From positions 67,750-131,749 of the forward strand of contig CAINDG010000038.1 of NCBI GenBank assembly GCA_903847315.1: a DNA stretch of 64,000 nucleotides, written 5' to 3'. The DNA comes from an uncultured Planctomycetota bacterium. Its GTDB lineage: Bacteria > Planctomycetota > Phycisphaerae > Sedimentisphaerales > UBA12454. The notes beneath the pieces were generated by a model, which did no database searches, was not told the origin of the DNA, and saw only the letters and a program-made list of their open reading frames with translations. Shown piece by piece: positions 1,850 to 6,751 of this stretch. The translations under genes and the position numbers were made by a program. Numbering within the stretch: the first letter of the stretch is position 1; every line of letters begins with the position of its first letter.

Positions 1850-2875
1850 TTAGCAAAGATTTACACTTTTGCATATTGGACAACCACCGAGGCAAATCTT
1901 TCTATGAGAACAATCCGGGCAATTATCTGCAAACAATTTCTCTCGGAATTCTCTAAACATATTTGAATTCTGCCATGTGTCTAGAATGTTACCATCATTG
2001 ACAGGAACACCTACCTTAGTTGGTTCCATGAACGAGCATGGATACATTCGCATATCTTCTGATATGAACATTGAAAATCTAGCTGCTTCACATGCATCGT
2101 AGAATGATGGTTTAATGTTTGTAAAATATGCAAGGCCAGACACCATACAACTATCGAAACCAATTCGAAAAGATTGTTCTCGATTTTGTACTAATTCGAA
2201 AAAACATTCTAAATCTTTTTTGTTTACTGATGAAAGTTGTTTTGAAGTTTGTCTGCCAATTGGTTTATAGTTTAAAAATATAATAGCATTTACACCAGAA
2301 AGAAATGGCGGAGGTTCTTTCAGCCAAGAAATTGCGGTACCTATGCTCAGAGAATCAAGAACGAAATGAATATTTGTCTTCATACCGACATTGATAAGCT
2401 TTTTTAAAGCCGCCTCAAACTCATTATAAGGACTGTATGCGCTTACGGCAACGGCGCCACAGTATTTACATGATGCTTTAATTACATCAGAGAATAACCC
2501 TCGCCCGTTTGACGTATAAGAAGGAATAATGCCATATTTCTCTCTGGTCAGTTTCAGGATTTCAGCAAACTTCGGATGCTGATTGGGGTTTCCACCTCCA
2601 AGAGCAACTTGTAAAACTCCCATTGCAGCCGCTTGCTTCATTATAATTTCGTAATTTGCAAGACTTATATGTTTACCTTTAGTGCTTGAATTACGATAAC
2701 AGATTAAACAATTTCGATCACACCATCCAGTTATAGATATATCCATCAACTCAGGTCCATGTTGAGACCATTTAGGCTCAAGGAATCCTTGTTCCTCAAT
2801 CCTAGCGAAAAAGCCTGTATGAAGATTAAATACAGTGGTGTAGTGTTCATTGGCGAAATGTTTAATATGGAGCAT
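1850..2875 (-). CDS. Radical SAM enzyme with C-terminal SPASM (auxiliary 4Fe-4S) domain; gene 4 of the island operon
   Basis: 341 aa. CX3CX2C motif WCDRNCLICY (C52/C56/C59, nt 2699-2722). GGGNP resembles the GGE-type SAM motif. C-terminal CPDCSHRKICLGGC is the CX2CX5CX3C SPASM signature (nt 1880-1921), with extra Cys at 335 and 341. The ATG lies 6 nt after the upstream stop. Confidence 0.85.
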   Translation of the reverse strand: MLHIKHFANEHYTTVFNLHTGFFARIEEQGFLEPKWSQHGPELMDISITGWCDRNCLICYRNSSTKGKHISLANYEIIMKQAAAMGVLQVALGGGNPNQHPKFAEILKLTREKYGIIPSYTSNGRGLFSDVIKASCKYCGAVAVSAYSPYNEFEAALKKLINVGMKTNIHFVLDSLSIGTAISWLKEPPPFLSGVNAIIFLNYKPIGRQTSKQLSSVNKKDLECFFELVQNREQSFRIGFDSCMVSGLAYFTNIKPSFYDACEAARFSMFISEDMRMYPCSFMEPTKVGVPVNDGNILDTWQNSNMFREFREKLFADNCPDCSHRKICLGGCPICKSVNLC

Positions 2876-2881
2876 AAAATA

Positions 2882-3301
2882 CTACCAACCACACTCCAAA
2901 GCATTTATATATAATTCAGGACGATCTATTTCGAAGATCTCAGTACACAAAAAGCTCTCTGGCGATTCACCCTCGCTGCGTAAAGTACCAATGTAAACAT
3001 CCATACCCACTTCGAGAGCATGCTCTGCTCGTTTAGCGGTTGATGGAGAGTGAATGTGTCGTTTCAGTAAAGACTTAATATCTGATGTTGGCCCCCAATA
3101 TTCGGATTTAGCTGCATCTTGTACATTTTCCATCTTTGAACAGAGCAACTCAAACAATTCCTTTCCAAAGGATTCTAAATGTGAACCTTGCTTTATCCCC
3201 AAGGCTTCTAGAAATACTTCCTTATTCGGTTTTCCTTTAGAGATGATAATAAATGAAGTCGATGAACTATTCGTAACATAATCAAATCTAATTTTCATCA
3301 T
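2882..3301 (-). CDS. Orphan 139-aa protein; gene 3 of the island operon
   Basis: No family recognised. N-terminus is MMKIRFDYVTNSSSTSFIIIS and the C-terminus ends ...ELYINALECGW. The ATG at 3301 overlaps the preceding gene by 14 nt and has GGAGAAG immediately upstream. Confidence 0.7.
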   Translation of the reverse strand: MMKIRFDYVTNSSSTSFIIISKGKPNKEVFLEALGIKQGSHLESFGKELFELLCSKMENVQDAAKSEYWGPTSDIKSLLKRHIHSPSTAKRAEHALEVGMDVYIGTLRSEGESPESFLCTEIFEIDRPELYINALECGW

Positions 3302-3737
3302 CTTCTCCTATGAGTTCAGCATTTAAGGTTTTCAAAATAACCTTGCGACCATTTTCCGTGTCTTCCCAAAGCGTATCTATTTGATAATCTCTGCCCCACC
3401 GAAAACTTTTAAGTAAAAGCAAGCAATTATGTGATTTAACCAATTTAGATATTTCTGACAAATAGATTTCATCGATAGCATATTTATGATAAAGGAAGCT
3501 TAGTATATTTGTGTACTCTTCCTTGTAAAATTTTAAATATTCGGCTCTTAAATCAATAGATGTATCAATAAAATATGCATATATTCTTTCAACAAGTTCT
3601 GACATATATGTCCCCGGTATTACATTGGCATTTTTTAAAATATTTTTAAGCTTGGGACGATTTTTTGAAATAACAATAATTCCATTATTTGTCCTTACAA
3701 GAAAAATTTTTCCATTTTGTTGCATTTTCTCTTTCAT
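3288..3737 (-). CDS. Orphan 149-aa protein with acidic C-terminal tail; gene 2 of the island operon
   Basis: No family recognised. It ends ...AELIGEDDEN. The ATG lies 3 nt after the NTPase stop (TAA-agt-ATG, 3743-3735). Confidence 0.7.
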   Translation of the reverse strand: MKEKMQQNGKIFLVRTNNGIIVISKNRPKLKNILKNANVIPGTYMSELVERIYAYFIDTSIDLRAEYLKFYKEEYTNILSFLYHKYAIDEIYLSEISKLVKSHNCLLLLKSFRWGRDYQIDTLWEDTENGRKVILKTLNAELIGEDDEN

Positions 3738-3740
3738 ACT

Positions 3741-6668
3741 TTAAATACAATCCTTTTTAAAACCTCGAAGATGTTGCATAATATGGTTGTTCATAATCTG
3801 TGTTGCAATTTTTGGACGGCGTTGCTTAAATTCCCAAAAGATATCCTGAACTGGGTGCATATAGTCATATCCTTCTATATTCCAAAGATATAACAAAATC
3901 CTAACTAAACCTTTATATGCAGCATCCCATTTATTACCAAGTAATAATGGTTTTAGATGTTCTACAAGTCTATCAATAGGATAAATTCCCAGATATTTGT
4001 CGAATGTATATTTACACAAAAATTGAAAAGTATCGTCATTCACGGTATCGAAAATATCAAATAAAAGGAAGATATTTGCATGTGGGTATATTTGAGAATC
4101 GTACCGACAAAGCAAGTTGGCAACAATATGCGGCGCTGTAGGATTATTCTGATTACATGCTTCTTTTAACACTTTGTCATCGTCCGCAGTGATTGCTTCT
4201 TCATCCAGTTCAAAGATATGTTCATAAAAGACATTTTGGTACCATGGTAAATATTTTATTATATCAATAGCGTTATTTTCTTTTTTTTGTCGTAAAGCGA
4301 AAAAGAGATATTCTTGTAATCCTTCTGCTACAGTGAGCTTAGGAACAGTTAATTTTTCGACGAGATGTTTAAATTTAGCAGCATCTTCTTTTAAAACAAT
4401 ATTTATAAGGTAGTTAGAAATCAGAAAATCTCTACAAGTATCGAATGTAAAATTTATGACTTCATTTTGGACAAATATTTTATTTGTATCGATGTCTTTT
4501 CTTAGCAAAATGTCTTCATCTATCAACTCTAGTAGTAACTTTGATTGATCTGTGTCAAAAATCGAAAATGGCACATCTGAATAAATATTTTGCTTTATCA
4601 TCCAACTGATAATCTTTTTTAGGATAGCCCAATAAGGTCTTTGTTTTCCTATAGGAGTATTTATTGAAGGGGTCTGATCATTAAAATCGCCGAATTTCTT
4701 CTGGAAATATTTATGAAAGATTTCTTCCCGTCTTATATGACGGATAAATGGAATTCGTTTCAATGATTTTGCGGTATGGTCGCCATAAGCCTCACAGAAA
4801 ACTCTTAACAAAAAGGGGTCATTTTCAAATTGTTTAAAAGCATGTTCCGATATTCTATTGGCATATATTTTGAAAAATTTTAAATAACCCCTAACTAATC
4901 GTTGTTTGTGTTCTTCAGACATATGCCGATGGATTTCGCGTTCTATAATCATTTTGTTTGCGAAACTGCTTTTGAGCAAATTTCCAAATCTGATGTCAAA
5001 ATATTCTGAGCGGCAAGTTAATATTACCCGAATATGAGAGTATTCAATACATTTTTCGATAAATCTTTCTATTTCAGATGAAAAGACCTTTATTTCTGGA
5101 TGTTCATTGATAGCATCAAACAAAATAATACCTGCTGTGCCTCTTCTTCTTGCTTCTTCATTTATATCCTGCAATACAGTATCAAATAAACCATTATTTC
5201 CATATATACCTCGTGCAAAATAATTTTGCAGTTCACCATGACTAACATTTGCTAATTCCTTGCCAGTAAAAAAGACGCACGGAATACTACGTTTGGTAAG
5301 ACAATTTTCGGCTAAGTCGCATACGAAATTAGTTTTTCCTTGGCCCGCCTTTGAAACAATGGCGAATACTTTAGCTTTAGCTATTTCACTTTTTTCAAGA
5401 AAAAGTTCCTTAACATGTTCGTTAAGAGAGTGTGCTTTGTCACAAAAATGCCATGAAGTTTCTTCAATAATATGCCTTTTTAATTTTGGAGCTTGACGGA
5501 TTAGGGATGTGCGACTTTTACGGTCCAATGCAGATAATTTTCGGGAAATATTCTCTACAATTTTTTGAAAACGAATAATGTTTTTATCTGTATGTTCAAA
5601 GTTAAATTTGAATTTTTTAAAATTTAAATTGAATTCTAGAGGTTTGAGCCCCGAATGCTTAAGTAAACGATTAATTTCATACAAATTGATACTTTCGAAT
5701 TCATAGAGTAACTTTTCCAAAAAAAGAGCTGGATGACAGAATATTCTTGCTTTTTCTTTGACATCACCTACTTCAATAAATATTTCCGGAATGTATTTTT
5801 TGCTGTTTTTTTCAGCGGCAATGCGATTTTGCAGACGTTTGGTCAAAATAGCCGTGATACTTTCTCCGGCTTGTTGTAGGACTGGTACTTTAAAAGTTGC
5901 TTCTGCCGAAATCCTTTCCGCTAAAGAGTTTCTTGTAATCTCTCCACCATTTATTGCAAAGTCGGTAGCCATTTTATACAAAATGGCATGTAAACTCGTT
6001 GCCTTACGAAAATCTTTGTCACCAACGGTTTCTTGTAGGAGATGAATACAATCTAAAGTGTCGCGTCCTGTTCTTGCGGTAAAATCGAAAGATAGAACAA
6101 TAAAATGTTTTAGTAAATGATGAACTTGAATTTTGGTTGGTTTTTTCCCAATTACTTTTTTTATTCCTGCTTCAAATGCATTCAATATATTTGTTTTAGT
6201 TTTAAACTTCAGCGTTTTCTGGTAAAATGCGTCGGGAGTGGATGATGTTTTAGCCCATTCAAGCAATTCCGCAACATGCCTTTTGACAGTTGAATTATTA
6301 CACACTTCACCAATTGCCAATCCTACACTATCATCATTCTTAAAATTTTTATCGGATAATTGATCCCAAACTTCGTTTACTACTTTGATAAAATCATCGT
6401 TCTTTGAAAATGTGATATTGTGTTTAACTTGCAAACATAATCGCTTTTTTATGCCTGTCGAAGTTTCACAATACAAAACAATATCATCAATGGGACAATC
6501 TCTATTTTTTTGTTGTAAACCAACTTCTTTGATTAAAGCATCTGGCATGCCACGAGGTGCTTCTTGACGCATGAGTCGGAGCAAGTAATAAATAGCTACT
6601 AGGCGGTCGAAGTAATCTCCACCACCACCCATAGAAAACGGATTTACTGCTGCTGCTTTCTTAGCCAT
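3741..6668 (-). CDS. NACHT-like STAND P-loop NTPase with PD-(D/E)xK-like (Cap4/DUF4297-like) N-terminal module and long helical C-terminal region; gene 1 of the island operon
   Basis: 975 aa. Walker A is SKAGQGKT (aa 439-446, nt 5331-5354). Walker B is IILFDAINE (aa 514-522, nt 5103-5129). A downstream RVILTCRSE block resembles the NACHT TSRP segment. The N-terminus has GGGGDYFDRLVAIYYLLRL, then PIDDIVLY..(x)..LCLQVKH (aa 59-83, nt about 6423-6491), a D..QxK arrangement like restriction-fold nucleases. About 350 C-terminal aa are unassigned. Confidence 0.8.
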   Translation of the reverse strand: MAKKAAAVNPFSMGGGGDYFDRLVAIYYLLRLMRQEAPRGMPDALIKEVGLQQKNRDCPIDDIVLYCETSTGIKKRLCLQVKHNITFSKNDDFIKVVNEVWDQLSDKNFKNDDSVGLAIGEVCNNSTVKRHVAELLEWAKTSSTPDAFYQKTLKFKTKTNILNAFEAGIKKVIGKKPTKIQVHHLLKHFIVLSFDFTARTGRDTLDCIHLLQETVGDKDFRKATSLHAILYKMATDFAINGGEITRNSLAERISAEATFKVPVLQQAGESITAILTKRLQNRIAAEKNSKKYIPEIFIEVGDVKEKARIFCHPALFLEKLLYEFESINLYEINRLLKHSGLKPLEFNLNFKKFKFNFEHTDKNIIRFQKIVENISRKLSALDRKSRTSLIRQAPKLKRHIIEETSWHFCDKAHSLNEHVKELFLEKSEIAKAKVFAIVSKAGQGKTNFVCDLAENCLTKRSIPCVFFTGKELANVSHGELQNYFARGIYGNNGLFDTVLQDINEEARRRGTAGIILFDAINEHPEIKVFSSEIERFIEKCIEYSHIRVILTCRSEYFDIRFGNLLKSSFANKMIIEREIHRHMSEEHKQRLVRGYLKFFKIYANRISEHAFKQFENDPFLLRVFCEAYGDHTAKSLKRIPFIRHIRREEIFHKYFQKKFGDFNDQTPSINTPIGKQRPYWAILKKIISWMIKQNIYSDVPFSIFDTDQSKLLLELIDEDILLRKDIDTNKIFVQNEVINFTFDTCRDFLISNYLINIVLKEDAAKFKHLVEKLTVPKLTVAEGLQEYLFFALRQKKENNAIDIIKYLPWYQNVFYEHIFELDEEAITADDDKVLKEACNQNNPTAPHIVANLLCRYDSQIYPHANIFLLFDIFDTVNDDTFQFLCKYTFDKYLGIYPIDRLVEHLKPLLLGNKWDAAYKGLVRILLYLWNIEGYDYMHPVQDIFWEFKQRRPKIATQIMNNHIMQHLRGFKKDCI

Positions 6669-6721: not shown

Positions 6722-6751
6722 ATTATACGGTGGAGATAAGGGAAAAGGCAA
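6722..6751 (-). promoter_or_regulatory. Putative sigma70-type promoter of the island operon
   Basis: Minus strand reads TTGCCT (6751-6746), an 18-nt spacer, then TATAAT (6727-6722). This sits about 55 nt upstream of the ATG at 6668. An AGGT SD-like sequence lies 12 nt before the ATG. Confidence 0.35.

Follow-up and report, generated by a model that had tools for sequence, protein, structure and literature searches.

A widespread four-gene cassette joins an Avs-type STAND NTPase to a radical SAM enzyme and two small proteins

The question raised by this locus is whether a STAND NTPase with a nuclease-like head can work as a complete sensor and effector on its own, or whether it belongs with the three genes encoded directly behind it. 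We analyzed a 64,000-nt stretch of DNA from an uncultured Planctomycetota bacterium (the window, with positions counted from its first letter), in which the region shown, 3741–6668, holds a single long open reading frame (ORF) on the minus strand with a 975-aa translation. We found that this gene heads a compact group of four minus-strand genes, running from 6668 to 1850, in which neighbors overlap or sit 3–6 nt apart, and that together they represent a new, widespread, radical-SAM-dependent STAND cassette of the Avs kind, which probably functions as an anti-phage abortive-infection system. The STAND gene (3741–6668, minus strand) encodes, in this order, a nuclease domain, a helical linker, a nucleotide-binding domain, a helical domain with a winged-helix domain, and a small C-terminal helical domain. 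Gene B (3288–3737, minus strand) encodes 149 aa, or 145 aa from the Met used in the public record, and starts 3 nt past the STAND stop codon; gene C (2882–3301, minus strand; 139 aa) overlaps gene B by 14 nt; and gene D (1850–2875, minus strand) encodes a 341-aa radical SAM enzyme with a SPASM domain, as identified with Pfam, NCBIfam and a family alignment.

The evidence that these genes belong together came from their linkage in other genomes. Relatives of the STAND protein at 46%, 42% and 33% identity, as well as one with an unrelated N-terminus, were followed in the same order by proteins of ~145 aa and ~137 aa and a radical SAM enzyme of ~350 aa. A scan of one genome per species yielded 79 STAND loci that spanned many bacterial phyla and also included Methanomicrobiales, Methanosarcina and a Micrarchaeota bin, and six-frame ORF profile searches placed B, C and D immediately downstream in all loci with enough DNA except one (L077). 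The reverse test, starting from C in metagenomes, found the STAND gene upstream in all 48 loci that had 1.5 kb or more of DNA on that side, and D downstream in all 68 loci that had 600 bp or more on the other. Given this near-obligate linkage, the 975-aa protein probably does not act alone. The initial annotation had suggested that this gene by itself could be a complete sensor-effector, a view that we abandon given that the linkage was nearly without exception in both test directions and that the related KpAvs2 protein gives weak protection when expressed alone (PMC11564622). The copy at L077 (6425–8845), the sole genome locus with ample downstream DNA and without B, C and D, has a short STAND ORF of 806 aa and may be decaying.

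The N-terminal heads of the STAND proteins varied across loci. The window-type nuclease head was present in 14 loci and a SMEK head in 27, SMEK being listed among the nuclease domains of short-Argonaute partners (PMC10810196), and the remaining loci had trypsin-like, PNP_UDP, DUF4062 or lipase/PGAP1 heads, or a stub of 50–60 aa, on an unchanged core. Given that the effector heads vary while B, C and D stay, the trio is tied to the STAND core and C-terminus and not to the effector. The swapping of heads among family members also agrees with the earlier proposal that the N-terminal domain is the effector. Loci with only the stub as N-terminus (L023, L037, L044, L048, L052 and L061) kept B, C and D; in these, the effector may be encoded separately upstream, or the output may come from the trio.

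In the window protein, the head (aa 1–256; 5901–6668, minus strand) was assigned by AlphaFold and Foldseek to a Cap4/LmuA-like PD-(D/E)xK nuclease domain, with a boundary at ~255–265 placed by homologues that share only aa ~270–975 and have other N-termini. The model of this domain, built on an alignment of 25 full-length relatives (pLDDT 90.2), predicted helix 17–33, strands 45–51, 63–68 and 74–82, helix 91–104 and strand 114–120, an alpha-beta-beta-beta-alpha-beta core in which D61 and D62 lie just before strand 2 and Q80-x-K82 lies in strand 3. The closest structures in the PDB according to Foldseek were LmuA of Lamassu (9hr5, E = 4.7e-6), Cap4 (6vm6/6wam, E ~1e-4) and HamA of Hachiman (8zue, E = 3e-4). 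Sequence searches gave a different result: Pfam, including DUF4297, returned no family for the query N-terminus or for 24 homologues at E ≤ 1, no family for the domain was found in the Pfam, NCBIfam or PADLOC libraries, and neither the whole protein nor the N-terminal profile retrieved anything meaningful from PDB sequences. Given the fold matches without a sequence-family match, the N-terminus is therefore Cap4-like in fold and constitutes its own sequence family. A restriction-endonuclease-like N-terminus of the Cap4/DUF4297 kind had been proposed from two strings, GGGGDYFDRLVAIYYLL at aa 14–30 and PIDDIVLYCETSTGIKKRLCLQVKH at aa 59–83, and was borne out by the predicted topology and by the matches to LmuA, Cap4 and HamA; a script check located both strings at these residues, along with SKAGQGKT at 439–446, IILFDAINE at 514–522 and RVILTCRSE at 547–555.

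The predicted catalytic core, D61-D62 ... Q80-V-K82 (6423–6488, minus strand), was drawn from conservation as well as from model positions. The 25 full-length relatives conserved G16-G17, E21 (Asp in the window protein), Q52, D61-D62, Q80, K82 and H83. In a larger set, drawn from the N-terminal domain family with one representative for each of 140 clusters at 50% identity, D61 and D62 were present in 140/140 and Q80 in 134/140, and position 82 was Lys in 132 and Arg in 8, so that the acidic pair followed by QxK, near-invariant in this set, is not a chance pattern. Position 21, in the first helix of the nuclease core, was Glu in 135/140, and the window protein, with D21 (nt 6606–6608, minus strand; codon 21 of the STAND gene), was the sole one with Asp. 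An exhaustive profile search with the domain retrieved at least 2,861 cluster representatives, 1,850 of them at E ≤ 1e-10, and the domain was N-terminal in the best-scoring 150 of the 2,861. The same domain was fused to Avs4-like proteins (~1,700 aa), to the PADLOC candidate PDC-M54A, to TPR-GreAB-C-PIN, to other NACHT proteins and to short AAA proteins. As far as sequences can tell, such conservation and such varied fusions are the behavior of a putatively active, portable effector nuclease.

Behind the head, the full-length AlphaFold model (58-sequence alignment; pLDDT 89.8, pTM 0.75) and the conservation profile delineated a helical bundle at aa 262–431 (5376–5885, minus strand), in which aa 281–320 (EKNSKKYIPxxFxE) formed the second most conserved stretch of the protein after Walker A, a motif also found in most related loci. 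The nucleotide-binding domain follows at aa 432–603 (4860–5375, minus strand; model and motifs), with Walker A GQGKT at 442–446 (nt 5331–5354), Walker B IILFDAINE (nt 5103–5129) and the sensor-1 strand RVILTCRSE (nt 5004–5030), all on the minus strand and verified by motif checks. G444, K445, T446, D518 and R553 were invariant in 58 homologues. A STAND helical domain (604–700) and a winged helix (701–775) come next (4344–4859, minus strand), as placed by the model and by alignment to Avs2 profiles. The succession of Walker A, Walker B and R553, then helical domain and winged helix, places the protein in a NACHT-like clade of STAND NTPases.

Profile and structure searches pointed the same way. 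PADLOC Avs2 models aligned to aa ~280–834 (E = 3e-23 to 5e-17), and Foldseek with the full-length model placed Avs4 (8dgf, 3.4e-7) and NLRC4 (2.5e-6) at the top, ahead of an NLRP-type chain, Cdc6/Orc1, SAMD9 and CED-4. The Pfam NACHT family was precomputed for many family members, and the query itself had a weak, sub-threshold match to nSTAND3. Together, the Avs2 profile matches, the NACHT annotation of the family and the structural matches to Avs4 and NLRC4 confirmed the assignment as a STAND NTPase, and the alternative of an ABC or replication AAA+ protein was considered and does not apply. Membership of Avs2 (AVAST type 2) itself was considered and rejected: the NCBIfam Avs2 model NF041813 matched aa 354–800 with 76 bits against an equivalog cut-off of 1,000, covering model positions 86–530 of 1,317, and the terminase-binding sensor region remained unaligned.

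The C-terminal part of the protein had been described as ~350 helical, repeat-like residues, presumed to be the sensor. It is indeed helical; as a sensor of that length it did not hold, given that aa 604–775 are the STAND helical domain and winged helix, and what lies beyond the conserved STAND module is only aa 776–975, ~200 residues. This stretch (3744–4343, minus strand) was modeled as a small helical-repeat domain of about ten short helices (781–964), with no match to TPR, HEAT or any other Pfam repeat family. Its length is fixed across the family (2% gaps), and its mean pairwise identity of 25% is similar to that of the linker. Based on the model, we regard it as a candidate ligand- or partner-binding domain. 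The PADLOC Avs2 profiles stop aligning at ~742 of their 1,504 positions, and the window protein ends ~140 aa later.

These dimensions bear on whether the 975-aa protein might still act as an Avs-type sensor-effector without partners, binding a phage protein directly through its C-terminus, with the downstream genes unrelated or optional. Most characterized Avs proteins act as single genes (PMC13581612), and effector, NTPase and C-terminal helical domain are all contained in this one protein, which also resembles Avs2 profiles. Self-sufficiency is nevertheless improbable given a C-terminal domain of ~200 aa compared with more than 700 aa in Avs2, a profile alignment that ends at ~740 of 1,500, the score far below the NCBIfam Avs2 cut-off, the weak defense by KpAvs2 alone, and a linkage to B, C and D that hardly ever fails, in either direction of the test, among bacterial phyla and archaea.

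Among the partner proteins, gene D was the most readily classified. It matched Pfam Radical_SAM (E = 1.4e-11, 45.3 bits, cut-off 29.5) and SPASM (22.9 bits, cut-off 21.5) as well as TIGR04085 (33.8 bits, cut-off 27), and C52xxxC56xxC59 was invariant in the family alignment together with a C-terminal Cys cluster, which identifies it as a radical SAM/SPASM enzyme. The nearest NCBIfam models were the peptide and cofactor maturases GeoRSP, WgkB and mycofactocin, and no NCBIfam equivalog model was reached (GeoRSP, 61 bits against 400). An assignment as viperin (pVip) was rejected, since D has a SPASM domain instead and matched only the generic core in PADLOC (E = 1.6e-8, aa 47–162), with 27.7 bits against a cut-off of 180 for the viperin equivalog NF038283. 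Neither B nor C matched a family in Pfam, NCBIfam or PADLOC or an entry in the PDB, where the C profile returned only noise. Protein C has an invariant N-terminus, MK[IV]xxD[FY]VTNSSSTSF, a Cys119 that is 99% conserved, and Trp as its final residue in 111 of 113 unique sequences. Protein B conserves only a Tyr/Glu-rich helix, EYxKYYxxEY, and stays beside the STAND gene in related loci.

In another reading, the trio is an output arm and not a sensor or licensing arm, making a modified peptide or protein that is released after STAND activation and acts as a toxin or as an amplifying signal. Radical SAM-SPASM peptide modules strictly coupled to AP-ATPase STANDs have been suggested to have such a toxin or signal role (PMC7159879), C's conserved C-terminus ends in Trp, and some members have only the N-terminal stub and no effector domain. 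We consider this role unlikely, given that the cassette is without a peptidase, exporter or immunity gene, that C is conserved at both ends and has the size of a folded protein, and that most members retain a bona fide effector domain on the STAND protein. The resemblance of D to cofactor and peptide maturases, together with the use of STAND NTPases as regulators elsewhere, could also suit a biosynthetic or regulatory cluster outside defense, one that pairs a radical SAM maturation pathway with a STAND regulator of the MalT/AfsR type. This we find hardly credible: the STAND protein is without a DNA-binding output domain, its heads are those of the immune toxic-effector set (nucleases, trypsin, PNP, DUF4062 NADase, lipase; 10.64898/2026.09.04.749371), and the cassette occurs in mobile, low-GC and defense-rich contexts.

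Viral genomes offered a view of what D might act on. One pattern scan with C, across 2.9 million IMG/VR contigs, gave 64 loci. The complete cassette was present on 5 viral contigs, and ~55 phage loci shared only C's first ~20–30 residues, here called the tag; many of these contigs were longer than 100 kb, up to 416 kb. Most tag-bearing phage loci encoded a D homologue (35–40% identity over the full length; 200–280 bits against the D profile) followed by 2–8 tandem small ORFs of 95–215 aa, all of which start with MK[IV]RxDFVTNSSSSSF and, beyond this motif, show no relationship to one another. Examples among the IMG/VR loci L171–L229 are L181 (6503–9923), L187 (3553–8785) and L193 (448–8393). 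STAND and B homologues were absent from these enzyme-array loci, some of the tagged ORFs belong to phrog_7397 (without known function), and we found no mention of the NSSSSSF motif in the literature. The strongest argument for an action of the D family on the N-terminal tag, and for C as substrate or partner of D, is this co-occurrence of a D homologue with tagged arrays in phages.

Three phage D-like ORFs had approximately double length (~630–790 aa), located at 448–2793 in L193, 1428–3314 in L186 and 3514–5880 in L219; the extra sequence in L193 lies inside the enzyme and looks intein-type. A distant D homologue (27% identity, 95% coverage) was found in phage RB43 (HE858210.2, 92307–93452; L230) and in 166 other records, from T4-like phages of Klebsiella, Enterobacter, Cronobacter, Citrobacter and Escherichia (RB43, KP15 and relatives), whose records label it hypothetical or radical SAM. 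Beside the D-like gene of these T4-like phages, tagged small-protein arrays were absent.

That phages encode the same enzyme family and many proteins with C's N-terminal motif would also suit a guard or decoy arrangement, in which C carries the modification made by D as long as the cell is healthy, its state changes when a phage interferes, and the STAND protein senses this change; a small, conserved C-terminal domain is better suited to a conserved self ligand than to the diversity of phage proteins. This arrangement is purely inferential, arrays occur on a small share of phage contigs (the 64 loci in 2.9 million contigs) compared with a cassette that is widespread in bacteria and archaea, and we give it little chance. 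A phage might interfere by depleting S-adenosylmethionine, by inhibiting Fe-S or radical SAM enzymes, or through competition from tag-bearing phage proteins.

We therefore return to the four-gene cassette as an Avs-type abortive-infection system, which we consider the most probable account. According to this account, the 975-aa protein would be an NTP-driven switch and executioner: upon a trigger, its NACHT-like NTPase would oligomerize in a nucleotide-dependent manner, and the oligomer would assemble the Cap4/LmuA-like domains into an active nuclease, as in Avs3, Avs4, Avs7 and KpAvs2, which would degrade DNA and thereby abort the infection. D probably modifies C post-translationally at or near its invariant N-terminal MKIxxDFVTNSSSTSF, B may be an adaptor, and C, or B and C together, would dock on the STAND protein, either at the C-terminal/winged-helix region or at the conserved helical bundle (aa 281–340). 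The docked C product could then license or gate activation, as Avap2 and Avap1 may do for KpAvs2. The trio could serve as licence, co-sensor, guard or output. A more specific version, possible if doubtful, is that the ligand or co-receptor of the STAND family is host C with a modification of its N-terminal tag installed by the radical SAM enzyme, in which case the cassette would be built on a phage-type modification system. The cassette might then detect tagged phage proteins, or phages might deploy tagged decoys against it, and if so, it would provide the first description of a bacterial NLR-like protein whose trigger or licence depends on a modification.

The genomic contexts of the cassette were in part those of mobile and defense genes. 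One metagenomic copy (L001) neighbored SIR2, AbiJ, Cas3 and QueC, and a PADLOC scan of 142 flanking ORFs matched AbiEii, HerA and a type I methyltransferase. SMEK-headed cassettes were also found in cultured, genetically tractable bacteria: on the pAt plasmid of A. tumefaciens Ach5 (NZ_CP011248.1, 20854–25306; WP_038496262 to WP_038496256; L231), where the genes are annotated as "SMEK domain-containing protein", two hypothetical proteins and "radical SAM protein", and in Klebsiella aerogenes (L232) and Vibrio vulnificus (L234). Integrase, AlpA, HNH and VapB (toxin-antitoxin) genes were neighbors on Ach5 pAt and in K. aerogenes. In the window, positions 1850–6668 form a low-GC island (30–37% G+C against 42–48% in the flanks), a composition consistent with horizontal acquisition of the cassette. 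Its flanks hold housekeeping and type II secretion genes, namely TspO, GARS and DUF1573 together with T2SS secretin, ATPase and platform genes; neither an integrase nor a tRNA gene was among the annotated immediate neighbors, a dedicated tRNA scan not having been run.

Several observations weigh against our account. The evidence from defense islands is anecdotal and without an enrichment statistic. In the nuclease core, D21 of the window protein replaces the Glu of the family, which close relatives at 76% identity retain. The homology of B or C to the accessory genes of KpAvs2 is unproven: HMMER found no match between PF19902 (DUF6375) and 39 B and C sequences, nor was one present in precomputed Pfam tables, and the DUF6375 assignment of Avap2 came from HHpred, which is more sensitive than HMMER (PMC11564622). 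An exploratory mirror-tree analysis in which the STAND winged-helix/C-terminal region tracked C (partial rho ~0.40) above D (0.16–0.25) gives only a weak hint in favor of the account, given that these values are small, come from non-independent pairs and have no significance test. Finally, a consensus scan placed a promoter-like site, TTGCCT-18-TATAAT, at 6722–6751 (minus strand), ~55 nt upstream of the STAND start codon, and this is weak evidence, given that promoter and terminator sites in the region were no more numerous than in shuffled sequence.

At the other end of the cassette, a 567-bp spacer (1283–1849) separates gene D from a type II secretion C-like gene and contains short direct repeats: TTCAC[TG]-rich runs at ~1390–1480, a duplication of 'GCG..TTTGGCTGAAAAAA' at ~1620–1655, and a GC-rich hairpin at 1767–1786. 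This spacer may serve the secretion operon downstream as promoter or regulatory DNA, or it may be a scar left when the island inserted.

We found no system name for the cassette in the records or libraries examined, and no published description. Literature searches on radical SAM and STAND defense, SMEK and NSSSSSF led only to KpAvs2/Avap1, the systems of Kaur et al. (2020) and the unrelated Ophion system, and neither radical SAM nor SMEK partners come up in a 2026 survey of ~90 Avs families. The usual picture of Avs and NLR-like proteins is that of one polypeptide whose large C-terminal sensor binds a phage protein. The family described here keeps the NTPase switch and the swappable toxic heads, has a small sensor domain, and has a radical SAM/SPASM enzyme and two small proteins as linked partners. 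The action of D on C, once worked out, could explain the radical SAM partner of KpAvs2, reveal a new form of gating in NLR-like immunity, and give a function to the widespread, unannotated phage small proteins that share the tag.

Known systems resemble the cassette in different parts. Classical Avs2 (NF041813, PADLOC) has the same core, which aligns to aa ~280–834 (E = 1e-21 to 3e-23), and also swappable N-terminal effectors. A large shape-complementary sensor defines Avs2 and the other characterized Avs families (PMC13581612), whereas the terminase-binding sensor of Avs2 (model positions ~740–1500) is absent here and the window system is not a single-gene system. The nuclease head has its fold in common with Cap4 (DUF4297, CBASS) and LmuA (Lamassu), with Foldseek E-values of 5e-6 to 1e-4, a probability of 1.0 and a TM-score of ~0.5 over ~257 columns. 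With these proteins and with the Cap4-type effectors of SeAvs3 and SeAvs7, it shares an acidic...QxK-type site and the use as an oligomerization-activated effector, the latter predicted for the window protein. It differs from Cap4 and LmuA in sequence (10–12% identity) and in an extra helical subdomain at aa 126–256.

The FxSxx-COOH systems (Kaur et al., 2020; PMC7159879) also combine a radical SAM-SPASM enzyme with a small protein that has a conserved terminus, strictly coupled to a STAND NTPase with helical repeats. In contrast, they include zincin peptidase and vWA-MoxR partners that are not part of the window cassette, their STAND proteins belong to the AP-ATPase clade and not to a NACHT/Avs2-like one, the conserved motif of C is mainly N-terminal, and the taxonomic range is different.

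The closest characterized system is KpAvs2-Avap1-Avap2 of Klebsiella pneumoniae (Bechon et al., 2024; PMC11564622), an operon of an Avs2 with a nuclease, the radical SAM protein Avap1 and the DUF6375-like Avap2. Differences exist: KpAvs2 has a long Avs2-type C-terminal sensor compared with ~200 aa here, its operon has three genes with one small protein compared with four genes and two small proteins, its nuclease is described as Mrr-like whereas the window nuclease matches Cap4/LmuA best, and Avap partners accompany ~5% of Avs2 homologues whereas B, C and D are near-obligate. Avap1 and gene D are likened by description and not by sequence. In KpAvs2, the helical bundle that links nuclease and NTPase is the binding site of Avap2, and Avap1 is required against some phages, the roles of both accessories being not understood (PMC11564622); by analogy, the bundle of the window protein may parallel the one bound by Avap2. 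What the two systems have in common is an Avs2-type STAND protein whose N-terminal nuclease is of the PD-(D/E)xK type and is separated from the NTPase by a helical bundle, together with a radical SAM gene, which gene D represents here, and a gene for a small protein. For KpAvs2, the STAND protein alone is insufficient and the outcome is abortive infection by non-specific DNA degradation, the same outcome that we propose for the window cassette.

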